A stretch of DNA of 53,746 nt from Prorocentrum cordatum (GCA_963575745.1 CAUYUJ010000289.1:62001-115746); one strand, 5' to 3'; counted from the stretch's first letter, positions 290 to 52,921 are shown. Notes: generated by a model from the sequence alone, not told the origin. Translations and numbers: made by a program.

Positions 290-25356
<25,067 letters not shown>

Positions 25357-25709
25357 GTAATTTACTGCTGCGGGCGGTGGTGGTGTATAGAAATTGGCCT
25401 CGCATTCCAGGTGGGGTCCGAGGACCGTGGCGCATCGCCGACGCACCGGCGATGCGGCTCGATGTGGAGCCCGATTTCCTCCACGCTGGCGTCGCCGATG
25501 CACCGCCGACGTCGCCGATGCATCGCCGATGCATCGGCGATGCACCGCCGATTCATCGGCGATGCGGCGCGGTCCTCCGACCCCATCTGTTCCGACCCCA
25601 CCTGGGGGCCTCTAGTCATTCGGCACGCCCCGACAGCCCTGGAGAGCCCGCACGGGTCCTTGGACCAGGTGGGCACGTGGCCGTAAGCCCGAGGCACAGC
25701 GGAGGCTGC

Positions 25710-28700
25710 CGGTGTTCACACGTTTTGATCTCTTGGTGGCGGGCATGAAGTGCATCCGTTGGATCCGCCATCAATCTTTGAGATCAAATTCAGTGTGGAT
25801 GAAGACATTCTTAAAATCATGCCCAAAAATCTTGTGACATTTAAGAAGGAAACGAAAAAAATAACGATCGATGCGTGCTTCAGCGCGATGAGCCATCGAT
25901 TGAGAGTCATTTTTTATTCTTTGTCCTGTTTTTCAAGAAAAGATTGCTGGACTATGAGAACAGTTAGTAGAACATAAAAATAAAAAAAAGAACATTCGAT
26001 TGATGATCTACGAACTGATGTTCATCATCAATCAAGTTCGTTTTATTTTTTCTGTTCAAGCTTTTTCCCATTTTGTTTCCTGTGAACTTTCCTTGACAGG
26101 GAAAGAAAGAGAGAGAGAGAGAGAGAGAACGGCCAACGCCTGATGGCGGAAATGAAATCTCTTGGCCGCTCATCTTCTCTCTCCGTCGTTCACAGGAAAA
26201 GAACAAACATCCATGAATGTCGTCCATCTGCTGCAGATGAATCGTGTTTTTTGGTTATATATTATATATATTTTATGATTGTTATTGTTATTGTTATTGT
26301 TATTATTAGTTTATCTTTAAGAACTATTATTATCACTGCCCCAGCAGTTGCAAATGATTGGTCATCTGCAGCTGGAGGAAGTAAGGTTCATGAGAGGATT
26401 TCTTTTCATTCGTTTTCAATGTATGATTCTGTATTAGGTCTTAACTCCTTTACGGTCATCTCTTAAAGAAAAGGGAAGCGTTTGCTGGTGGCAAGGCCTT
26501 GAGGCCCAAGCGAAGCTAACCAACAAACGATTGTTTCCCTTTCAAGAGATGTTCGAGCAAAGGAATAACATTTTTACATAAGTTATGGAAGAATAACCAT
26601 GCCGCCTTTCTTATTCAAAAGACAGTTTGATAGAAGTTAAAAAGAGAAGTACGAGCAAGCTGATGAAGAGCACATTTCCCTTTCATGTTCTTTTTTTTGT
26701 TTTTTTTTCACTTGCTCTCATCTTCTTTTCTTTTACATTTACATATTATTATTGAAAATCAAAGAGATGGAACGATAAACTTACAACACAAAATATAATA
26801 ACCAAGAAAGGACATGCTTATGTTTGATTCAATTTTCCTCTTCTCTCTTTCATCCTTATGATCATTTTGTCTTCTCCAAAGTAAAATGATTGAAAACTTA
26901 TTTCTTTTAGAATGTTACCATTCGAGACGTTTTCGTTCTATTTTTTTTTTGTTTTTCGGTTTATTGTATCATTATGAAAACCGGACAAGGAATTCACACC
27001 ATTTGCTTTTTTGTTTTCATTTAGTGTCCTCCTGTTGTACGAGCTGTTGGCAAGGTTCTTTGGGACCCAGCTTCAGGCTGACCAACAGCTCAAACAAATA
27101 ATTTTGCAAACCCGCACAAATGATGTCACCGAGGGTCTTCTCTCTTATGAGGAGCCTATCTGCGGACAGTCGAAGATGGTTGACTTTGCCATTGCAGGCT
27201 CTTATTAAATAGAGAATGGGACCTTCGGTCGATCCTTTGCATATTGCTGGCGTAGTGTGCTGGCCTTAGGCCTTAAGCACGCCAACGCAAGGGACCATAT
27301 GGTATCTTCATTTACACAAAAGAGGAAATAACTGGTGGAAATGAAAACCAGGACTTTAGGGCCCAAGGCTGATGCCATCTCCTGGCCATTATGAACAAAA
27401 GGAAGAAAGAACACTGATAGATTTCCGGAATAAATCTTTCAAACTCATTTTTATTTTTCTTTCTTTCTGATTTGGCCACGGGCCGTCTTTAGGATTTCAT
27501 TTTTTAATGAAAAATTATCTGCTGACCAGTCTCAAGGAAAGAAAGCGAATAAAGGCCAGCAGATAGTGAAAAGAAGAGCTCCTTACGGATCTCAACTCCT
27601 TTGCAGAATTCGTTCTCCGATGCGGCCAGGGCATCAATCAAGATAATGCATTTCAAGGCGAATGGTGGTCATGCGGTCCAAATTCTCTCTTCTTTGATCG
27701 GGGCTCACGATTTTTTTTTCTTGTTTTTAGAAAGTGAGCCCCCAAAGAAAGAGAGAAAATACATCATGATGAAACATGAAATGGAAGGTCTCCTCCAATC
27801 TCGACTCCACCATTTTTTTTTATTATTTTTTTTTGAACAAGAAAGTTTAACTGGGAACCGAGGGGGATCTTACTTCTTATATTTATGATGTCCTTCCTTT
27901 GGGTCCGTCTTCATTCCTGCTGTTCCTTCTTCTTTTTAAAGAAGAAGGCAGGGCTGAAAGACAAGACCAAATTAATAAAAACAGCATCGTTTTCTTATAC
28001 ATAAAGAAGTTACATGTTTATTGCCTCCTTGCTACTTTCTGGAATGAATTCTCACTTTTCTTTATTGTATGTCGTAAGAACTCTTCAAGCGATTGAAGAG
28101 GGATTTCTATCTTTATTAGAAGTTATTTCTTTCTTGCATCGATGAGACACTAGTTCAATCGCTAGTAAAAAAGGAGTGTTAATAATCATGTGGGCTGCAA
28201 ACTTACCTTCTCGTTTCCTTTCATTGATTGGTAGCTTCGGTCCTTCATGACCCATCTTCATATGACCATCATTGAACAAAAAGGAAACTACGATCGTGGG
28301 GAAGATTGGGCTCCCCACCGGATTATTAATCAAGAGGCCTCCGGTGGCGTTAACTTCTCATCTTTCCGAATAAAGGAAATGATTGCAAACGAGACTGCTG
28401 CAGCATATTGCGATCTTTTCTTCGGGTCCTTTTTTTTGCCAAAGAAAATTGTAATGCCAGCGGCCATCGGTCGCTAGTTTCTTTTTCCTACTATTTCATC
28501 TGGTGGCTTACATCGACACGATTGGTACGAGGCCGAGTCAGCAGAAGAGAAGATGAATATGTGCCACCAATCAATTGTTGTGGGCAGACATAGCTTCGTG
28601 GATGACCGCAATACAGAACAATACTTGTATTAAGCGGTCATCAGTAACGAAGCTGTTTTCCTTCGTCTTTCTATTCGGGGGCCGTGAATGGTTGACCGCC

Positions 28701-28778
28701 GAGAACAAAGACGAGTATGGGCACGGAATTAGGACTAACCGCTGAACTATGTTTCTTTTGTTATTGTTGGCGGTTAAC
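25710..28778 (+). other. AT-rich hairpin-array island, segment 1 (candidate mitochondrial-DNA insertion or structured ncRNA locus)
   Basis: Abrupt drop in GC; no credible ORF; consecutive imperfect inverted repeats with loops cgtgc-TTCA-gcgcg (25879), gaac-TGAT-gttc (26016), cgcc-TGAT-ggcg (26141), ggcc-TTGA-ggcc (26499), gacc-TTCG-gtc (~27223), ggc-TGAT-gcc (~27370). Confidence 0.75.
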
Positions 28779-30387
28779 TTTTTCCCAACCCTCCTGCGTT
28801 GGGTTCTCGTTTTGAATAGAGCACTGCTCGCGCCTTCCTTCCCGCCCCCCCCCCGTCCCTCTCTTCCCCCCTGCCTTCGCTCGTCGCCGCGTGCCGCCTG
28901 GGGGGCTGCGATCTGTGAAACTGACGCCACTTTCGAGGCCTGCTGGGGGGCCCAGCACAGTGGGTACACACGGCGGACTCAAATGAGACCTCGCCATCCC
29001 TGGGGGGCTGCGATCTGTGAAACTGTCGCCACTTTCGAGGCCTGCTGGGGGGCCCAGCACAGTGGCACACGGCGGACTCAAATTAGACCTCGCCATCCCT
29101 GGGGGGCTGCGATCTGTGAAACTGTCGCCACTTTCGAGGCCTGCTGGGGGGCCCAGCACAGTGGGTACCCACGGCGGACTCAAATGGGACCTCGCCATCC
29201 CTGGGGGGCTGCGATCTGTGAAACTGTCGCCACTTTCGAGGCCTGCTGGGGGGCCCAGCACAGTGGGTACCCACGGCGGACTCAAATTAGACCTCGCCAT
29301 CCCTGGGGGGCTGCGATCTGTGAAACTGTCGCCACTTTCGAGGCCTGCTGGGGGGGCTAACACAGTGGGTACACACGGCGGGCCCGAATGGGACCTCGCC
29401 ATCCTTGGGGGGCTGCGATCTGTGAAACTGTCGCCACTTTCGAGGCTTGCTGGGAGGCCCAGCGCAATGGGTACCCACGGCGGATTCAAATGGGGCCTCG
29501 CCATCTCTGGGGGGCTGCGATCTGTGAAACTATCGCCACTTTCGAGGCCTGCTGGGGGGCCCAGCACAGTGGGTACACACGGCGGACTCAAATGAGACCT
29601 CGCCATCCCTGGGGGGCTGCGATCTGTGAAACTGTCGCCATTTTCGAGGCCTGCTGGGGGACCCAACACAGTGGGTACTCACCGCAGATTCAAATTAGAC
29701 CTCGCCATCCCTGGGGGGCTGCGATCTGTGAAACTGTCGCCATTTTCGGGGCTTGCTGAGGGGCCCAACGCGGTGGGTACCCACCGCAGGCTCAAATTAG
29801 ACATCGCCATCCCTGGGGGGCTGCGATCTGTGAAACTGTCGCCGCTTTCGAGGCCTGCTGGGGGGCCCAGCGCAGTGGATACCCACCGCACACTCAAATT
29901 AGACCTCGCCACCCCTGGGGGGCTGCGATCTGTGAAACTGTCGCCGCTTTCGAGGGTTGCTGAGGGGCACAGCACAGTGGGTATTCACCGCGGATCCAAA
30001 CGGGACCTCGCCGTCCTTGGGGGGCTGCGATCTGCGAAACTGTCGCCACTTTCGAGGGTTGCTGAGGGGCGCAGCACAGTGGGTACCCACCGCAGACTCA
30101 AACTAGACGCCGCTTTCGTCCTTGTTCTCCTCCTGCAGTCACCTTCCCTCTGCTGCAGCCGTGCTGATGGTTCGGCATCCCGCACGTTTTTCTCTTGGTC
30201 TGTGTTCCCGATTCCCCATGTCTTCTTCGAGCCTGTAGCTGTCGCCCCTCGTTCTTGTATGGTTCTCCTGCGCATCATGCCATAGGCGCGTGTCCCAAGT
30301 AGCTTACACATCAAGTTGATTGTCCATGCAAGGTTCGGCTAACTCCTCGTTTCCATTGGCACAAATGGGTTAGGTACAGGGTAATTT
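28779..30387 (+). mobile_element. Non-autonomous Helentron/DINE-like element with central 102-bp tandem array and captured unique fragment
   Basis: Starts TTTTT-CCCAACCCTCCTGCGTTGGG-TTCTCGTTTTGAATAGAG (5' stem-loop), then a pyrimidine tract, the tandem array and unique 30107-30360; ends GGGTTAGGTACAGGGTAA-TTT. Termini are shared with 32767-37114. Confidence 0.55.
28895..30105. repeat. Tandem satellite, ~102-bp unit, ~12 copies (variant A)
   Basis: Repeating cctcgccatccctggggggctgcgatctgtgaaactgtcgccactttcgaggcctgctggggggcccagcacagtgggtacccacggcggactcaaat. Confidence 0.95.
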
Positions 30388-30924
30388 CCTTCCCCGCGCG
30401 CGTTTCATTCTCTTGCGTTAACAAGAAAGAGGTGGAAAGAAAACAAGACAATGTTGGAACACGCTTGGGGCAGAAGTGTGGGCGTATGTTGTGCACATGA
30501 AAGAAGAGCTCCGCATGAGCTTCAAGCTCGAGCTTTTCTGGCGCTGCAAGTAAGATGCCCACGGGAAGGCATCGTATTATTGTCTCTTCTTGAGGAAAGT
30601 CCATTCTCTTTCATAGTAGTTTTTTTTTGTTTGTGTAAATGACAGTTTACTATAAAGAAAGGCGGTGGTAACATTTTCTAGAAGAGGCAGAACATGACAT
30701 GCATTTCCAAGGTTCATTTTGATGGATCAAACATAAAAGGAATTCGTGGCTCCTCAGCATGTTTTTTTTGTTTCTCCTGCAGCGGGGCTAATTCCTGTTT
30801 ATGTTTTGACCTTGAAGGAACCGTTTTCTTCTTATGACCTTCGTTTCGGTCTCTTTTCTTGAGAGAACGCGGCAGAGCAGAGAAAATAGGGGGCGACGGG
30901 CCCGTGAGAAGAACGCAAAGCCAT

Positions 30925-31018
<94 letters not shown>

Positions 31019-32056
31019 CAAGGGCTTCCATTTTTGCTAGATGGAAGCAAGCTTAAACTAAAACAAAAGTGGGAGTTCGTAAAGATGTACAATAAAGAAT
31101 AATAGTGATGACACGTTAATCTTAAACAAGCACTTGTTTCCATGATTTTTTTCAGTAGAATGGATCTTCGGTTCATTATATATATAGATATCTTTTAACA
31201 CATCCCCAAACCCATAACCTAAGATAGTACATGTTATTGATGGGCGATCGAAGAGACAGTAATAAACGATCGTCCACCACCTTTTTTTGTATGTTATTCT
31301 AGTTTGTAAAAATGAAAAAAAGGAAATTGCTGGAACAGGAAGAATCAAGCCTCGCGACCCACTGATTGATGGCCAGCCGTGGGCTTCAACCTGCGGTTGA
31401 CCATCAATCAGTCGTGAGGCTATTTTCTTTACAACGAATGAAAACGCGTTTTTAATCTTCACAGGGGGCCATCCGTCTCTTAGTCTTTCTCAGGGGAACA
31501 TTGAGACGGAAGTGGTGCATTCTAGAAGTTGTGAACTAAGTGTGTTTTTTATACAAACATTTTCTTTTCCAATTATTGAGCTTATATATTGAGCAGCAAT
31601 TGCAAATTTAGAAATGCAAGGAAAGAGCTGTTTAGCATGCCTAATTGATGTAGAAATTGTTCATTTTAAGTTTATTTGTCAGCACTATCAATCTTAATTA
31701 AGTAGAAATGAATTTCATGAACGGGTTAATTTCCGATATTTCTGTCTCCAATCTAAAAATGGAACTCCTGGGGCACGCGCGTGAAAGAAGGGGGAAACAA
31801 GGTGCGCCCAAAGGGTGAAGAGAAACGGCTGATGCCGGGAGAAGGAAAGGAAACCAATTTCAAACTCATCTTCGAGCACCTTATTGCGGTCAAGGGCGTG
31901 AGGCCCCAACATCAGTTGCTGACCGCAAGTGCTCGTAAAGCATGGGTTTGTTGATTTCGTTTTCTACCAGCCGCCACTAATGACCAAAACATAACAAACG
32001 TTTGTTGATGGCGAGCTGATGCTCAATCTTTCAGGACCATGCCATCAATTGATAAC

Positions 32057-32115
<59 letters not shown>

Positions 32116-32766
32116 CTTCCGCAGGCGGTTGATGCTCCATCGTGAGAGAGCTTACTTGTCAGCCTTAAGCTGGCGCTCTCTCATCATCGATGGAAGTTTC
32201 CTTTCATGAGGGCGTTCGCTTCGATCTCTTCTGTGGCATTCAAGAAAGAGAAAGAATACGCGCCGCAGTTCAGAGGCGAAGCGCGCCTTCATAATGAAAG
32301 GGACGAAATCAACCCTTCTCCCGATCACGAAAGACATATAGAACGAGCCGTATTAACTGCCTCAGCCGTTGCTCGTTCTTTTCTTTCACTTGGTCGGGAA
32401 AGGGGGGATTGATTTGATGGCGCGCCAGTCTCTGTCCTTATGGCCAATAATAATTTCTTCCACTTTTTAACTATATGGTCATGCGAATGAAAAGGGCGAG
32501 TGACGTGCCATCCTATGTTATTTCTCTTCTTTGGTCCGGTCTTTGGGCAGGCTTCATCTTTTCTTCAATGTTGGTCATCTTAAGATGAGCGCGTTGAAAT
32601 AAGGAACGAGAATGAAGACCTGCCCTGCATACGGACCAGGGGAAGGACAATAACAACAAACTCGTCCTCGGCTCTCATCTCACTTTCTCTTTTATTAATA
32701 ATTGGTTAAATCTGGAGCTGGTGTTCAACAGCTTATTACAGAGAAAATAGAGCCGAAGGGCAATGA
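30385..32766 (+). other. AT-rich hairpin-array island, segment 2
   Basis: Same architecture: stems at ~31348-31421 (aagcctcgcgac..ctgattgatgg/ccatcaatcag..gtcgtgaggct), gagc-TGAT-gctc (~32017), ~32201-32300, ~32307-32416, tcatc-TTAA-gatga (~32580). Confidence 0.75.
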
Positions 32767-32859
32767 TTTTTCCCAACCCTCCTTGGTTGGGGATTCGTTT
32801 TGAATAGAGGGGTGTGGTCGCGTCCTCCTTCTCCCGCCTCCCGCCTCCGTCTTGTCTCC

Positions 32860-33921
32860 TCTCGCCATCCCTGGGGGGCTGCGATTTGTGAAACTGTCGC
32901 CACTTTCGAGGGCTGCTGGGGAGGCCAGCAGAGAGGGTACTCACCGCGGATCCAAACGGGACCTCGCCGCCCCTGGGGGGTTGCGATCTGCGAAACTGTC
33001 GCCACTTTCGAGGGCTGCTGGGGAGGCCAGCAGAGAGGGTACTCACCGCGGATCCAAACGGGACCTCGCCGTCCCTGGGGGGCTGCGATCTGTGACGCTG
33101 TCGCCACTTTCGAGGGCTGCTGGGGAGGCCAGCAGAGATGGTACCACCGCGGATCCAAACGGGACCTCGCCGTCCCTGGGGGGCTGCGATCTGTGAAACT
33201 GTCGCCACTTTCGAGGGCTGCTGGGGAGGCCAGCAGAGAGGGTACTCACCGCGGATCCAAACGGGACCTCGCCGTCCCTGGGGGGCTGCGATCTGTGAAA
33301 CTGTCGCCACTTTCGAGGGCTGCTGGGGGGCCAGCAGAGAGGGCACTCACCGCGGATCCAAACGGGACCTCGCCGTCCTTGGGGGGCTGCGATCTGCGAA
33401 ACTGTCGCCACTTTCGAGGGCTGCTGGGGGGCCAGCAGAGGGGTGTCGCCGTCCCTGGGGGCTGCGATCTGTGGGAAGGCTCACTTCGCCACTTTCGAGG
33501 GCTGCTGGGGAGGCCAGCAGAGAGGGCACTCACCGCGGATCCAAACGGGACCTCGCCGTCCCTGGGGGGCTGCGATCTGTGAAACTGTCGCCACTTTCGA
33601 GGGCTGCTGGGGAGGCAAGCAGAGAGGGTACTCACCGCGGATCCAAACGGGACCTCGCCGTCCCTGGGGGGCTGCGATTTGCGAAACTGTCGCCACTTTC
33701 GAGGGCTGCTGGGGAGGCCAGCAGAGAGGGTACTCACCGCGGATCCAAACAGGACCTGGCCATCCTTGGGGGGCTGCGATATGCGAAACCGTCGCCACTT
33801 TCGAGGGCTGCTGGGGAGGCCAGCAGAGAGGGCACTCACCGCGGATCCAAACGGGACCTCGCCGTCCCTGGGGGGCTGCGATTTGCGAAACTGTCGCCAC
33901 TTTCGAGGGCTGCTGGTGGGT
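32860..33921. repeat. Tandem satellite, ~102-bp unit, ~10 copies (variant B)
   Basis: Same core (gggctgcgatctgtgaaactgtcgccactttcgagg) with variable part gaggccagcagagagggtactcaccgcggatccaaacggg; units start near 32863, 32965 and 33067. Confidence 0.95.
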
Positions 33922-33935
33922 CCTGCGGAGTGAGG

Positions 33936-35470
33936 TTTTTTTCACTGTGTGCGAACGCCAAGCAAAACTCTGCAAGCAGGTTCAAACTTCGCGGCATGAA
34001 AAATGAGGCTAACTGCATAAGTCTGCCTAGCCAGCGTGCGCCTGCAGGGCCGATACGATCGGCAGGAGCCTTGTAGCCTCTACCGGGACCAACCGCGACG
34101 CTGCACTCAAAACGGGTGCCACTAGCCACGGCTCTTCCCGCAGCTGTCTAATTACCTCACCTCCGTCGGAAAAGCGGCTGAGCAACCTGAGGTCAGAGAC
34201 CGAGAGCGCCTTCGCACCCTCGTCAAAACTCGAGCCGGAAAAATGCTGCCCAGAAAAAGCCGAAACTTCCACCTCACCCGAAAGAGCGCTCATAGCCATC
34301 TGATCGGAGGGCGCCTCAACCGAAGGAGGCAGCCCCAAACCAGCGTCAACGGACACTCCTGGGCAAGCCTCGGAAAGAGGCTCAGCCAAAATGGCCGCTG
34401 AAAGGCGAACCTCATCAGACGGAGGCTCAGCCAAAAAGGAATCCACAAGAGTAGGGCGAGCCTCAACAGTTGGAGGCTCAGCCAAACCAGCACTTGAGGA
34501 GACCACTGAGGGAGATATTGCAGAAGCGGCTTCAACGACAGACGAGCGAGCCTCATCAGAGGGAGGCTCAGCCAAGAATGCTTTTGAAACCACATCTTCA
34601 TGCACAGCAGCGGCTTCAGCGACAGACGAGCGAGCCTCATCAGAGGGAGGCTCAGCCAAGAATGCGTTTGAACCCACATCATATTTCTCCCTCTTCTTGT
34701 GTTTTCTTTTACGGCGCACGCGCTCGCCGATAAAGAAATTCAAGGCCTTGGCGTCCTCCTCGGCGGGATGCGGGGAATGCGGACTGGTGGAGGCGGCGGC
34801 GGCAGCACCTGCACCACAGAGCTGGTCGGTGCAGCACTTGCTGGCGGGGGTGCTGGCGGCCACTCCTTCAAGCCCGCCTTGGCCTCCTCCGAGCGGACAT
34901 CCTTGTTCTTCTTCTTGTGCTTGCGCTTCCGAGGGCGCTTGGCCTCTGCCACCGCTGGAGCCGGAGGCGGCGTCGGGATCTTCAGGCAAGCCCTCGGAGC
35001 GTCCTGAGACTCCGGAGGAAGCGAGAATACCTCCTTCGCTACCGGCGGTGTCGGGGACCTCGTACTGGCACCGTCGCACTTCTCCTTCAAAGCCGGGGCC
35101 ACAGGCGGAGCCGACGCCTCCTTCTGGTTGACCTGCAAACGGTCCCATCTCCTCAGGCGTTTTATTGGCTGCACCTCCTCCTCCTCCGGCTTCAGCGGCA
35201 GGGAATCCTGCCCCGGAATCTGCATGCCCTTGCTGAACTCCATGTCCACCACATCGACCAGGCTCCAAATCCCTGGCGGCGGTAACGGGGGGGGCAGCCG
35301 TAGACAGAGCCTCCTGCGAAAACGACGATCTCGAGCTCATCGTTGGAAACTCCGAAGCACTGAGTGAAAGCACTAATACGGTCTCCTAGTGAGGTGCCCA
35401 GCAAATCAACCGGCACAAAAAAGCGCATGGACGGGGCCTTGAGCCGGGGTGGCTTGAGCCAGGCTACGGA
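33936..35470 (-). pseudogene. Processed retrocopy of a spliced-leader trans-spliced mRNA (intronless, frameshifted; product with RKRKHKK basic motifs and LAEPP repeats)
   Basis: Minus strand begins TCCGTAGCCTGGCTCAAG CCACCCCGGCTCAAG GCCCCGTCC ATG (ATG at 35428), ends in A7 (T run 33936-33942), and is flanked by direct repeat CCTGCGGAGTGAGG at 33922-33935 and 35471-35484. The coding sequence appears to pass through three frames and stops at 34027. Confidence 0.85.
35438..35470 (-). other. Dinoflagellate spliced leader (DinoSL) remnant plus tandem relict SL
   Basis: 35470-35453 TCCGTAGCC----TGGCTCAAG versus canonical DCCGTAGCCATTTTGGCTCAAG (ATTT deleted); 35452-35438 CCACCCCGGCTCAAG versus canonical 15-nt relict CCATTTTGGCTCAAG. 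Confidence 0.85.
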
Positions 35471-36990
35471 CCTGCGGAGTGAGGCGCCGCGCGGACCTGA
35501 GCGGGACCTCGCCGTCCATGGGGGGCTGCGATCTGCGAAACTGTCGCCACTTTCGAGGGCTGCTGGTGGGTCCTGCGGGGTGAGGCACCGCGCGGGCCTG
35601 AGCGGGACCTCGCCGTCCCTGGGGCTGCGATCTGCGAAGCTGTCGCCACTTTCGAGGGCTGCTGGTGGGTCCTGCGGAGTGAGGCGCCGCGCGGACCTGA
35701 GCGGGACCTCGCCGTCCCTGGGGGGCTGCGATCCGCGAGACTGTCGCCACTTTCGAGGGCTGCTGGTGGGTCCTGCGGAGTGAGGCGCCGCGCGGAACTG
35801 AGCGGGACGTCGCCGTCCCTGGGGGGCTGCGATCTGTGAAACTGTCGCCAGTTTCGAGGGCTGCTGGTGGGTCTTGCGGAGTGAGGCACCGCGCGGACCT
35901 GAGCCCGACCTCGCCGTGCCTGGGGGGCTGCGATCTGCGAACCTGTCGCCACTTTCGAGGGCTGCTGGTGGGTCCTGCGGAGTGAGGCACCGCGCGGGCC
36001 TGAGCGGGACCTCGCCGTCCCTGGGGGCTGCGATCTGCGAAACTGTCGCCACTTTCGAGGGCTGCTGGTGGGTCCTGCGGAGTGAGGCACCGCGCGGACC
36101 TGAGCGGGACCTCGCCGTCCCTGGGGGGCTGCGATCTGCGAAACTGTCGCCTTTTTCGAGGGCTGCTGATGGGTCCTGCGGAATGAGGCGCCGCGCGGAC
36201 CTGAGCGGGTCCTCGCCGTCCCTGGGGGGATGCGATCTGCGAAACTGTCGCCACTTTCGAGGGCGGCTGGTGGGTCCTGCGGAGTGAGGCACCGCGCGGA
36301 CCTGAGCGGGACCTCGCCGTCCCTGGTGGGGCTGCGATCTGAGCGAAACTGTCGCCACTTTCAGGGCTGCTGGTGGGTCCTGCGGAGTGAGGCACCGCGC
36401 GGACCTGAGCGGGACCTCGCCGTGCCTGGGGGGCTGCGATCTGCGAAACTGTCGCCACTTTCGAGGGCTGCTGGTGGGTCCTGCGGAGTGAGGCACCGCG
36501 CGGACCTGAGCGGGACCTCGCCGTCCCAGGGGGCTGCGATCTGCGAAGCTGTCGCCACTTTCGAGGGCTGCTGGTGGGTCCTGCGGAGTGAGGCACCGCG
36601 CGGCCTGAGCGGACCTCGCCGTCCCTGCGATCTGCGAAGTGTGCGCCACTTTCGAGGCTGCTGAAACTCGTCCCTGGGGGGTTGCGATCTGCGAAACTGT
36701 CGCCACTTTCGAGGGCTGCTGGTGGGTCCTGCGAAGTGAGGCACCGCGCGGACCTGAGCGGGACCTCGCCGTCCCTGGGGGGTTGCGATCTGCGAAACTG
36801 TCGCCACTTTCGAGGGCTGCTGGTGGGTCCTGTGGGGTTAGGCACCGCGCGGATCTGAGCGGGAACTCGCCGTCCCTGGGGGGCTGCGATCTGCGAAACT
36901 GTCGCCACTTTCGAGGGCTGCTGGTGGGTCCAGCGGGGCGAGGCACCACGCAGATCTGAGCGGGACATCGCAATCCTTGGGGGGCTGCGA
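35471..36990. repeat. Tandem satellite, ~101-102-bp unit, ~15 copies (variant C)
   Basis: Same core with variable part tgggtcctgcggagtgaggcaccgcgcggacctgagcggg. Confidence 0.95.
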
Positions 36991-37110
36991 GCCTCACGAA
37001 TGCCGCTCGCAGAAGTACATGCGCCCATGTCACGTCATCATCTCCGTATAACGAGTCCCAATCTACTCATGCCCCGCATTGCGCAGGGGTTGGGTACGTC
37101 GCCAGGGTAA

Positions 37111-38700
37111 TTTTCTTTCTAGTGAAGCGCGAGCTCTTTCTTAGGATCGGTGGTGATGACGAACCCAAGCTCTCGCCTGTTATGGGCTCGTCCACCGATC
37201 CAAGGATATGAGCTCACAACTTCCAAGACAGGATCGGCTGATAAACAGCCATTATTATGCCAGCGATCCAAACGAGAACAAGTGATCGATGGAATGATGA
37301 CTGTCCGCCAATCGAAGGAAAAAAGGGTTTTCTTAAGAACCTAAAGATAACACATGAAAAAGATGATGAACGGCTGTTAAAACCTTCCCCTTTCTTTTTC
37401 ATTACAATCTGCTGTCAATTACATTCTCCCTCATAATCAAGTAAAGCTTTTTCATTTAAGTTTTAATGCGAGGGGGGATTTTGAAGTTGACCGCAGAGAA
37501 TGGAAACACAACTGGACCAGCAGCTTACAGACGGCTATTGTTCCTTTTCTTAGTGTGGTCACACATAATAAATTAAAGTGCGAGTGGCCACCGAGAAATA
37601 ATAGCCGTCAGTTGATAGCTGAATATGATCCACCCTTGGTCCTTTCTTTCCGTCATACAAAGAGAAAAAAACGAACAGCAGTGCGAATGAAAGAGTTGAT
37701 GATGCACAACTGTGCTTAAGCACGCATCAACCTTTTCATTCTCTTTCTTTTACGTGTTCTCTTAATAAAGGAAAGAAAGAAAGGGACCACGGAGAAGACT
37801 GCAGGACCTTCAATCAATCCTGGCGTTATCAAAGAAAATGTGCGTGCTTCAGCACCAATCAAAGCTTGCATTTTCTTTAGCACCAGAGATTGTTGAGTCC
37901 TGAAGGTCTTCTTTCATTTCTTTACAAAAAAGTTCATCTTTGAGTCCTTTCCATTTTCTCTCTTGTGCGCTCTTGAGATCCAGCCAGTCATTAAACAGAC
38001 ACAATATTGGATTTGAGCTCACAGAAGAAAGAAATTCATGAAAGGACCAAAGGGGCTCTCCCTAAGAAGTGAATGATTATCGGACCGAAGAACATGTCTC
38101 ATTTATTCCCTTATGTAATCTCATGCTTTCTCTTGAGAGAACATATGAATGAAATGAGATTAATATATATATATATATACACATATTAGTTCCAGAAGGC
38201 CCGCCAGTCGTTAACGGTTAACCGCTTCGCTCTTCCTTTCTTGTGGTGGGTTCATAACAGCTGCTGCTGACCCGCCATCACAACGAAGGAAAGAAGAGCC
38301 AAAGCGTGGTAACGTTAACCGTTAACAGCCTGCTGCTTACTACGGAGGTCTTGTGAACTCATTTTCTTCTCTTCATTGATCTGCTGTCTTCGATGGCATC
38401 ATTCATTAAGCTGAGGCTTAAGCCATCGAATTATGACAGCAGGTCGTAGAGAAGAAAGTGATTTCAAATGCTGAGCCAAAGAGCTCTAGTTTGATGGTCA
38501 ATCGAAGATTGAAGCTGAAGCTCATGCCATCAAACGAGAGAGAGAGAGCTCTTCTCCAAGGCCAGCATTTTTGAATCACTTCCTCATTTTAGTTGAAGGA
38601 AACAATCTCTGGCACAGGAGTTTCTGTCTTTTCATAATAAACTCAGAACTAATTCCTTGAAGAAAAGTATAAGCATTTTTTGTTCAAGAAAAAAACAGAA
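37111..38700 (+). other. AT-rich hairpin-array island, segment 3
   Basis: Same architecture: ggatcggtgg/ccaccgatcc (~37144-37201), gacggctatt/aatagccgtc (~37529-37609), gtgc-TTAA-gcac (~37716), gtgc-TTCA-gcac (~37848), tctc-TTGA-gaga (~38133), gttaacggttaac/gttaaccgttaac (~38210-38326), aagc-TGAG-gctt (~38413), agc-TGAA-gct (~38516). Confidence 0.75.
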
Positions 38701-39068
38701 GGATTCCTTAACCCCCACCCTGACTCGCGATGAGTGAATTGTCCGTGTTCGGTTCTTTCCAGGCTTTCGCCCGCGAGGTTTGGGCCCGAGGTCGTTTTCA
38801 CTAAACCACGTTTTTCTAAAGGGGGTTCTGTCCATCCCCGAGAATCCAGGCCAGCGGCCTTGAAAAGCGGCGTCTTGTGCCGACTTACAGGCCAGAGAGC
38901 AGGTCTCCTCTTCCCGTCCTGCGTGTCGGCACTCTGCTGCGTGCTGCGGCTTGGTGGCCCTCGTCCGAGGTGTGGGCATGCCCTCCCCGCCCACGGCTGC
39001 CGCGCCTCCCCGGCCCGCCTCCCGGGCGGGGGTGGGGACGAAGCCCGCGCGCGCGCTCGGGCGCCCAG

Positions 39069-39204
39069 GACGGGCGCGGACACGCCACATTGGCGGCGAG
39101 GGCCTTCCGCGCGGGGGAGCAGATCTTCTGCGAGCCGCCCCTGGTGCTGGTCGCCGGCACGGCGGGGTCGAGGTTCGAGGATCGGGGCCCCCAGATCTCC
39201 GACG
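39069..39204 (+). CDS. Exon of SET-domain (SMYD/Set5-like) lysine methyltransferase, N-terminal SET segment
   Basis: cccag| acceptor at 39067-39068, then DGRGHATLAARAFRAGEQIFCEPPLVLV, matching the SET-N motif GRG...A.R.(I/F)..GE.I..E.PL; donor approximate (G|GC at 39204 or gtgagt at 39207). Confidence 0.7.
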
Positions 39205-40534
39205 GCGTGAGTGTTCATTCCCCACGTTTGTCCTCGATTAGGGGGCCTCATGCGAACCCTGCCCCTACCCCCCACGTTTTCTGAGGGGGAGGGGTAGGGT
39301 TCGCATGTGGCCCCCTATCGATTTTGGCCCGTGGAGCCCCTTCCTGGCCAAACAGCCATGGATCCGGGATCCGGGACAAAAGACTGCCCCTCAAGGGACG
39401 AAAACATATCGTCGGGCGTCTGGGTTTGGGCGTAGTCATCTGGCCCGGGGCGTCCAGGGTATTTCCAGAGGCTCTAGGCCTCCTAGATGGGGTCCGAGTA
39501 GATGGGGTCGGAGGATCGCGCCGCATCGCCCGTGAATCGGCGATGCGGCTCGATGTGGAGCCCGATTTTTCCCACGCTGGCGTCGCGGATGCGTCGCCGA
39601 CGTCGCCGATGCATCGCCGATGCATCGCCGATGCATCGCCGATGCGGCGCGATCCGTCGACCCCACCCAGTCGGATGCCATCTGGGAGGCCTCTATTTTC
39701 AGAGGCCCCCGACCAGAGTTTTTTGCTTTGTTTGCGCGTCTCGCCCGCTCATCCCCGATCTTTCAGGAGTATGGGGAAATATGGGAAAATATGGGGAATC
39801 TTTTTATTAGTGTGTATTTATTTAATCGCTTCGCTCATGCCGCCGGCCCTGGAGCCCTCTTTAGGGCCTCTTGGGGGCCTCTTGGGGACCTCTTGGGAGT
39901 CTCTTGGGGCTCCTTGGCGGCGTTTTGGAGGCCCCCAGGGCCTCTTGGGGGGCTCTTGGGGGTAGTCGATTGCGGCTCCCCCCTCGGAGGCCACGATCCT
40001 CGTGAGGGGTGTCGAAAAATACCCTCCCCTGGAGTGGTCTGGTGGCTTCTCCCGGGCTTCTCTCGGGACCTTGCCGGGGTACTTTTCGTCCGGGGGCCCC
40101 CAGGGGCCGCTCCGCGCGCGCGAACTAGAAATATTGTTAACAAGTTACCGGAGATCTTAGCACGCCTCTGGCCCGTTGGGCCGGCGAATTTGTGTGTCCT
40201 GGGGCTCCTTTAATCTTGTCCCGAGTGCCCAGCCTTCCCTATATAGAAATGCGGTTTTGCGATCGGGGACCTGTCGCCGAGCTATATCGGCGAGGCGTCG
40301 TCGCGATGGCAGGCAGGGCGTGTGCCTCCTGAGGCGTCTCACCCCTTCGGCCTCCCTCCTTTCGAGGAAGCAGAAGAGCGCCACGAACGTAACTTTTCGG
40401 CGCTCCGCGCGGATTTCCTGGATCCGCTCCGGGGCCCCCCTGGCGGCGCCTCCGGCGCCGCCCCCCTGGTGCGCTCCGCAACATGGGGAGGGGGGTCCAG
40501 CGCGTATGCAAGAAATCCGCGCGGACCGTCGAAC

Positions 40535-40679
<145 letters not shown>

Positions 40680-41527
40680 TTGTTCTTCCTCTAATGTCAG
40701 CAGGGTGGCATCATTCAACATCGAGAGCGTGCAGCATCGAAAGTCCAAGGCTTCCAGCGTCTGGCAAGAGTCAGGACGGCTTGCTTCTCCGATTTGTTAT
40801 TGAGGCTTGTTTCGAGCCCTGGGGCCTGCCGAACATTGCCCACGGCGCGAAAATCATGCGGCCGAAATGGTCGAGTGCACTTAAGCATCGAACGAGTTTT
40901 GGAAGTATATTTGAGGCTGCTTGGAGGCAGATCGATCCTCTCTTAGGACTTGTTTGGGGATCTTGGGGGCCTTCTTGGGGCAGTCTTGGACGCCACGTCC
41001 ATCGGCCCCCGGAAGACACCGAACTCGAGGCGCACACCGGCATCAAACGGCTCCAGAAGTGCCCCAAACACTGAAACAGGTCGCAAGAAGGGTCTCGACA
41101 GGGCTCCAACGGGGCGTCAAGAGCACCCCAAAAGAGCTTCAAAGGGTCCGAAGAGGAATCCCAATCCTCGAATCCCAACCCTCGAATCCAATGTGTTCTC
41201 TCGCTCCGCTGATGCACTTCGGCGCACCGTGACACAGATGCTCAGCCCGCCTGGGACTTGCCTAACCCAGGGGTGAGCTCGGTGGCTTAACCTGCTCGAG
41301 CCAAACCCCTCGAATCCGAGGCTCCGCCCAACATGGGTTTTCATCCGTGGTCTGTCCTTCTGTCCGCGGCTGGCCAGGGCGACCACCACGCCAAAGTATT
41401 CGTAACCCCCAGTCCACAGACGAGGGGGGAAGTGCTGCGGCACGAGGGCCCACGACCGAGACCACGACGACGACGACGACGCCGACGACGACGAGGATGA
41501 CGACGACGACGACGACGACGACGATGT

Positions 41528-52530: not shown

Positions 52531-52921
52531 TTCAGACGAGAGAGAGTGCACGCACCGTCCTCGCCGCGGAGCCCCGCCCCCCAGCCACGCACCCAGGGAC
52601 AGTGCATGCCCGCCCGGCCCCCTCGCTCCGATCATGGGCCGTTCGGGCCTCGCGAGGGCGGCGAGGATCTAGGCCCCTAAGATGGGGTCGCAACAGATGG
52701 GGTCGGAGGGTCGCGCCGCATCGCCGATGCATCGACGCTGCGGCTCGATGTGCAGCCCGATCTGCCCCACGTCGACGCCGCCGATGCATCGCCGACGCAT
52801 CGGCGATTCGGTGGCGACGCATCGCCGATGCATCGGCGATGCGGTGGCGATGCGGCGCAGTCCTTCGACCCCATGTAGTCGGACCCCATCCAGGAGGCCT
52901 CTGGTGCTCGGGCCCCGCGAG

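Follow-up and report, generated by a model that had tools for sequence, protein, structure and literature searches.

We analysed a 53,746-nt stretch of the Prorocentrum cordatum assembly (GCA_963575745.1 CAUYUJ010000289.1:62001-115746), referred to below as the window, and focused on a single large AT-rich island that lies in its gene-poor, repeat-rich DNA and is packed with imperfect hairpin-forming palindromes. An original prediction, made from the sequence alone, had described three AT-rich segments in a GC-rich window, and GC profiles at two resolutions bear this out. The GC content of 1-kb windows is 0.35-0.47 at 26-29, 30-33 and 37-39 kb, compared with 0.58-0.69 in the surroundings, and a profile at 200-nt resolution has just three runs longer than 600 nt that stay below 50% GC, 25701-28800, 30301-32800 and 37101-38800, averaging 0.39-0.41. 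The segments therefore stand at about 40% GC against about 60% GC around them, and they hold 43% of the A5+/T5+ runs of the window in 14.7% of its length. Repeat-induced point mutation (RIP) changes CpA to TpA in repeats and so raises TpA/ApT far above 1. An AT-rich isochore of the RIP type was considered and rejected, with TpA odds of 0.55, ApT odds of 0.88 and no TpA excess.

The three segments are separated by two GC-rich inserts, named E1 and E2 in Table 1, which share both termini. These shared termini are the sole basis on which we regard the segments as probably one former island of about 7.0 kb, minus two insertions. One apparent hairpin restored across an insert junction was rejected because control joins did as well.

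That this AT-rich stretch is densely packed with imperfect palindromes able to form hairpins, dozens of them and all different, is confirmed with strong statistical support. Using a strict finder (Watson-Crick pairs only, score of at least 30, span of at most 200), we counted 14, 8 and 10 hairpins in segments 1, 2 and 3, or 32 in 7,041 nt, where dinucleotide shuffles (50 for each segment) gave 2.9, 2.6 and 1.6 (maxima 7, 6 and 5), a sum of about 7. Shuffles within 10-nt bins, which preserve local composition and the alternation of purine and pyrimidine tracts, gave 4.7, 3.0 and 1.8. Folding against dinucleotide-shuffled controls, the check proposed with the original prediction, came out in its favor: summed Lfold energies (non-overlapping local structures, span 150, eight shuffles each) lay at z = -12.3, -7.9 and -7.6 for segments 1, 2 and 3, and at z = -12.2, -9.0 and -7.7 when compared with the 10-nt-bin shuffles. 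Because the bin shuffles keep the purine and pyrimidine tracts, the energy excess reflects true complementarity and not composition. Five GC-rich control stretches gave z values of +2.7, -2.7, -5.1, +0.6 and 0.0, and fixed 150-nt windows beat their shuffles over most of the AT-rich segments and not in the satellites. When 14 hand-picked hairpins were folded as DNA, none of 200 shuffles was as stable in any of the 14 cases (z from -3.5 to -9.2), a result that the selection biases. Inverted repeats numbered 30 against 6.4±2.0 expected and were enriched about twice as strongly as mirror repeats.

Hairpin density differs along the island and with the threshold applied. The almost continuous tiling that had been claimed holds at a relaxed threshold, at which 54 hairpins cover 76-79% of the sequence and shuffles reach 48-54%; segment 1 alone then has 22 hairpins and 79% coverage. 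It does not hold for the strict set, which covers 51%, 32% and 62% of segments 1, 2 and 3. Within segment 2, the sub-blocks 30385-30920, 31025-32050 and 32120-32766 gave z values of -1.6, -1.7 and -6.7, so that only the final 650 nt are clearly hairpin-rich. Perfect mini-hairpins (stem of at least 5, loop of 3-6) were not enriched, with 53 found, about 16 of them from the T/A run, and 37±7 in shuffles.

The hairpins have imperfect stems of 20-49 bp, measure 40-190 nt overall and are mostly arranged side by side rather than nested. The original prediction had also held that they share architecture and not sequence. Their uniqueness is confirmed by self-BLAST and a repeat finder, which returned only T-rich low-complexity matches among the blocks. 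The proposed division of the stems into a purine arm and a pyrimidine arm is seen in 31 of the 54 hairpins, in both orientations. The small apical GC stem survives as a mild trend only, stem GC rising from 0.36 in the outermost fifth to 0.46 in the innermost, and offset apical mini-hairpins are visible in the DNA folds. At several apices the turn is C-TTNA-G with closing G/C pairs, as in GTGC-TTAA-GCAC. The motif [GC]CTTNAG[GC] occurs eight times in the island, where 1.9±1.2 occurrences are expected and none of 200 shuffles reached eight.

The prediction that the segments contain no credible open reading frame stands as well: the longest stop-to-stop frame is 143 aa, and none of 136 frames of at least 35 aa reached the Pfam cut-off. 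BLAST gave no match when segment 1 was compared with phages and segment 3 with plasmids. No homologous locus of the island was found, so the further idea of the original prediction, that structure was conserved in place of sequence, has no footing as yet. No tRNAs were found in the AT-rich blocks, and Rfam gave no match there at gathering score; at E<=1 it gave nine, all far below gathering scores and belonging to generic microRNA (miRNA)-precursor and other models.

Folding was equally strong on the two strands: compared with its own shuffles, the plus strand gave z = -7.8 in segment 1 and -7.9 in segment 3, and the minus strand -9.6 and -7.7. In an alignment blind to wobble, the stems contain 74 G·T and 47 A·C oppositions, which fits the G·T share of 0.543 predicted from composition (p = 0.14), and the ratio showed no over-dispersion among hairpins (chi2 16.8, df 21). 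Transition-type oppositions make up 0.38 of the stem mismatches, compared with 0.34 in chance hairpins. Since the strands fold equally and the balance of G·T and A·C follows composition, the dyad symmetry belongs to the duplex DNA itself, with no sign of selection on a transcript.

The inserts E1 and E2 are the only two copies of their repeat in the window, and both lie within AT-rich DNA. Both start with TTTTTCCCAACCCTCCT..GTTGGG...TCGTTTTGAATAGAG and end with GGGTTRGGTAC...CAGGGTAATTT, and in E2 the two satellite arrays are separated by 1.5 kb of other sequence. The left terminus is conserved over roughly 45 nt and on the minus strand forms a small hairpin, CCCAAC..GTTGGG, followed by A5; judged from its sequence, it looks like a retroelement 3' end. 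To follow the repeat beyond the window we used contigs sharing words with the locus from one low-coverage public DNA run (X1), in which depth is not copy number. Contigs on 28688-28900 have a summed depth of about 3,000, and 29 loose contig ends precede 28779 with low agreement (0.37), that is, with many different upstream flanks. The left terminus also recurs at positions 7-49 of a 1,053-bp metagenome contig (L001), where it adjoins unrelated sequence; this was the one contig returned by a metagenome scan with the terminus, and it has no upstream flank. One X1 contig connects 25588 to 28783 through 39 unrelated letters, and because high-copy repeats lie on each side, we take it to represent another locus and not an empty site. 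A search for target-site duplications around the long T-runs gave only an 11-nt match that does not adjoin the run. If the repeat targets T-runs, the chance of both inserts falling in the island is about 0.19, given the island's share of such runs, and the double insertion would then be unremarkable. The island is embedded in nuclear DNA, since repeats with a high copy number in X1 flank it and break it up at two places, and the insertion of two diverged copies sharing both termini argues that it has long been resident in this nuclear context.

Table 1. Positions of the AT-rich segments, inserts, representative hairpins and tandem arrays, counted from the first letter of the window.
Feature	Position	Strand	Description
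AT-rich segment 1	25710..28778	no strand	3,069 nt, about 39% GC; densest in hairpins
AT-rich segment 2	30388..32766	no strand	2,379 nt; contains T72+A20 and T58
T72+A20 run	30927-31018		inside AT-rich segment 2
T58 run	32058-32115		inside AT-rich segment 2
AT-rich segment 3	37114..38700	no strand	1,587 nt; back-to-back hairpins
Insert E1	28779..30387	-	GC-rich; begins TTTTTCCCAACCCTCC, ends ...CAGGGTAATTT; 102-bp satellite x11.9 at 28897-30102
Insert E2	32767..37113	-	both termini as E1; two arrays of the 102/101-bp satellite, 32861-33916 and 35471-36990
Back-to-back hairpins of segment 3	37634-37792, 37793-37912, 37938-38052, 38097-38159, 38210-38319, 38354-38466, 38484-38540		
Example hairpin	38354..38466		37-bp interrupted stem; apical stem-loop TTAAGC-TGAG-GCTTAA offset by one-sided bulge; folded as DNA, -32.8 kcal/mol, z -9.16, 0/200 shuffles as stable
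Example hairpin	31340..31429		GC-richer inner stem; -27.7 kcal/mol, z -7.36, 0/200 shuffles
C-TTNA-G apices	25878, 26498, 32579, 37715, 37847, 38132, 38417 and others		
(AGG)n/(CCT)n arrays	24642-24825, 126-268, 1858-2461, 4891-5688, 12482-12721, 15595-15773, 16141-16512		
Short tandem arrays	24255-24551, 34456-34680		101-bp x2.9 and 84-bp x2.6, respectively; unrelated to the 102-bp satellite

We tentatively favor the reading that the island is old, long-resident nuclear non-coding DNA whose quasi-palindromes were made in place by fold-back or template-switch copying. On this view it is a single piece of non-coding AT-rich nuclear DNA, poor in low-complexity sequence and about 7.0 kb long without the two later insertions of a high-copy, retroelement-like repeat, and its sequence is dominated by some 30-50 different imperfect palindromes (quasi-palindromes of 40-190 nt). 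Intra-strand fold-back or template switching during replication or repair of such AT-rich, T-tract-rich DNA would most likely have created the hairpins and would partly renew them. The copying would write the reverse complement of neighboring sequence, and each hairpin would be unique for that reason. Copying in place would account together for the uniqueness of the hairpins, their locality, the equivalence of the strands and the lack of transposon hallmarks. Template switching is described as creating and maintaining hairpins in parts of the work of Löytynoja & Goldman (2017, PMC5453318) and Mönttinen & Löytynoja (PMC8794818, bioRxiv 10.1101/2021.04.15.439925).

Several observations weigh against copying in place. 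That the hairpins were made by copying, that the DNA is of nuclear and not organellar origin, and that the hairpins are a by-product and not a selected function are all inferred; no template-switch event was seen, either as a paired change in both arms or as a loop inversion, which leaves the mechanism as inference only. Mirror repeats are enriched too (15 against 5.3±2.2 expected), so low complexity accounts for some of the symmetry signal, and about 1.6 kb of segment 2 (30385-32050) shows little hairpin excess. Hairpins across the joined segment junctions were no better than control joins, of which 26 of 40 and 31 of 40 reached the observed value. A content of about 40% GC in a setting of about 60% is unexplained if the island shares its mutational regime with the flanks, and the sharp island edges would fit insertion equally well. 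With pieces of only 2-4 kb, comparing the dinucleotides of the island with those of its flanks is noisy.

An insertion of that kind could have come from an organelle, and the original prediction had offered a nuclear mitochondrial insertion (NUMT) as one of its two options. We consider it unlikely, if deserving of serious attention, that the island is organelle DNA, rich in hairpins and free of genes, which entered the nucleus long ago as a NUMT or its plastid counterpart (NUPT), decayed there and was hit by nuclear repeats; the enlarged non-coding mitochondrial genomes of dinoflagellates might be the donor. The foreign composition and sharp edges are what such an insertion would leave, and the non-coding regions of dinoflagellate mitochondrial DNA (mtDNA) are described, in parts of Jackson (2007, PMC2151934), as A+T-rich with dense inverted repeats whose stems tend to be G+C-richer, which the apex-ward rise of stem GC in the island recalls. 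A unique, gene-free 7-kb piece of mtDNA is also plausible given the Symbiodinium minutum mtDNA, reported by Shoguchi (2015, PMC4558855) as 326 kb long, 64.3% AT, 99% non-coding and free of highly repetitive sequence. An old transfer of DNA of that sort would closely resemble the island. None of the tests, however, yielded positive evidence of an organelle origin. None of the 136 frames of at least 35 aa matches COX1, COB or COX3, three universal rRNA motifs are absent from the AT-rich blocks, and tRNAs and Rfam matches at gathering score are lacking there, as noted above. The dinucleotide odds are indistinguishable from those of the flanks: the flanks have TpA at 0.52-0.58 and the island has it at 0.55, both have GA/TC at about 1.2, and dinucleotide distances are 66-179 between island and flank and 65-184 between flanks, the values being noisy on 2-4 kb pieces. 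Between 25300 and 28900, X1 contigs cover the two repeats but no more than two short pieces of segment 1, where the sole exact match is a 151-nt contig of depth 3.8, a depth that is not a copy number. Nuclear repeats themselves could instead be the source, if the island were a graveyard of many different old palindromic transposons of the miniature inverted-repeat transposable element (MITE) or foldback type in AT-rich DNA, which we think improbable. Palindromic repeats are abundant here: 9 hairpins lie in the flank 20000-24000, where 3.7 are expected, the repeat at 25421-25662 attracts X1 contigs of summed depth about 29,000, and an X1 contig of depth about 100 matches 27478-27598, inside segment 1, though not exactly. 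Some hairpins also lie within long loops (91-156 nt) of others, as nested insertions would. However, the hairpins are chiefly side by side, no terminal motif common to them was found, none has a second copy within the 53.7-kb window, and the known repeats of the window are GC-rich. Direct repeats flanking 34 hairpins average 2.24 nt, compared with 2.45 nt at random (p = 0.81), in a test that old or 2-nt target-site duplications would escape. Repeat copies could be at most a minority of the hairpins.

The other option of the original prediction was a polycistronic hairpin-RNA or single-stranded-DNA-structure locus. The RNA part, a transcribed cluster of hairpin RNAs of the miRNA-, siRNA- or hpRNA-precursor type (small interfering and long hairpin RNAs in the latter two cases), we regard as very unlikely. 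Side-by-side hairpins of 50-190 nt with long interrupted stems do resemble Dicer substrates, and the weak Rfam matches include miRNA-precursor models such as MIR8562, but that match scores 29.3 bits against a gathering score of 211, and every other match is likewise far under its own. Folding shows no strand preference, G·U does not exceed A·C beyond composition, no promoter or processing signal was identified, and no homologue with covariation was found. It is the DNA-structure part of the option that fits best. A DNA structure need not be a by-product, and the island might instead be a chromosomal structural element that needs unique AT-rich, cruciform-prone DNA, such as the core of a small regional centromere, a site where replication starts or is blocked, or a border between chromatin domains. 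It is the window's single large AT-rich island, its dyad symmetry is dense, and the window's only two copies of the satellite-bearing retroelement-like repeat both lie inside it. In Symbiodinium microadriaticum, GC dips of about 6-10 points are described at Hi-C domain boundaries in parts of one study (PMC8110479), a loose parallel. The dip reported in those parts is nonetheless about 6-10 points and not 20, GC skew is not reversed across the island, and the double insertion is unremarkable should T-runs be targeted. There is a small chance that the island is a functional cruciform-prone element (a centromere-like core or a domain or replication boundary) in which symmetry is kept by arm-to-arm copying while the sequence drifts, and which has attracted the satellite-bearing retroelement; a structural element of any of these kinds seems to us a similarly distant prospect.

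The DNA around the island contains repeats of several kinds. A GC-rich palindromic MITE-like repeat with GCATCGCCGATGC-type units occupies 25408-25613, with related copies at 8126-8303, 39468-39692 and 52663-52902. The copy at 25408-25613 draws about 5,000 X1 contigs of summed depth about 29,000, and it is a member of a very high-copy family of a large, repeat-rich genome. An uninterrupted run of about 146 T at 40536-40681, with 97% matches, is similar to the T72 and T58 runs of the island; on the minus strand it looks like a retroposed sequence's poly(A) tail of great length. The window is also dotted with many (AGG)n/(CCT)n microsatellites, which form arrays of 100-800 nt and run in either orientation. 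An exon-like GC-rich frame on the plus strand (about 39040-39212) lies 0.3 kb to the right of the island and ends at GTGAGT; its peptide contains ARAFRAGEQIFCEPPLVLV and presumably resembles the start of SET-domain proteins. The frame gave feature scores of 0.93-0.95 to small protein clusters, one of them named SET, with no Pfam match and no homologue in a protein search. Pfam likewise returned nothing above cut-off for 170 long or plus-strand frames (20+93+57) of the window outside the AT-rich blocks, and the dinoflagellate spliced-leader motif had no match in the window.

Some organelle genomes are known to contain dense fields of unique hairpins, which appear not to have been described from nuclear DNA. 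A limited open-access literature search, covering dinoflagellate mitochondrial inverted repeats, Hi-C boundaries, dinoflagellate NUMTs and template switching, returned no account of nuclear DNA in which dozens of unique quasi-palindromes form a field, which is not proof that there is none. If such islands recur in the genome, they would mark places at which the structure of the DNA, and not its sequence, is generated or kept up, and they would offer a natural system for studying template-switch mutagenesis, replication stalling, and boundary or centromere function in a setting where such elements are unmapped. Should the island be a functional element, it would be a sequence-independent, structure-defined element of a sort not yet described for large GC-rich protist genomes. 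If it proves to be a neutral by-product, or organelle DNA inserted long ago, its interest is that of a curiosity left by genome decay.

Human palindromic AT-rich repeats (PATRRs) and the dyad-symmetry-rich cores of centromeres are examples of AT-rich nuclear DNA able to extrude hairpins or cruciforms. These are single large palindromes or satellite-based, whereas the island is an array of dozens of small, different ones. MITEs and foldback transposons, which are abundant elsewhere in the window, are like the island hairpins short, non-coding and palindromic over nearly their full length. The island hairpins differ from them in forming no families, in having neither target-site duplications nor shared termini, and in being AT-rich. 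The non-coding DNA of dinoflagellate mitochondria, as portrayed in the portions of two studies drawn on here (PMC2151934, PMC4558855), is like the island A+T-rich and largely non-repetitive, with dense local inverted repeats and G+C-richer stems. The repeats described in those portions are short (>6 or >9 nt) and perfect, whereas the stems of the island are long and imperfect; the island also lies among nuclear high-copy repeats and is interrupted by them, contains no mitochondrial gene or rRNA fragments, and carries the dinucleotide signature of its flanks. Template-switch mutations, to judge from parts of the two studies that describe them (PMC5453318, PMC8794818), share with the island the production of unique local inverted repeats without transposition or selection at the RNA level. 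They are described there as scattered single events, whereas the island is a 7-kb field made almost wholly of hairpins.

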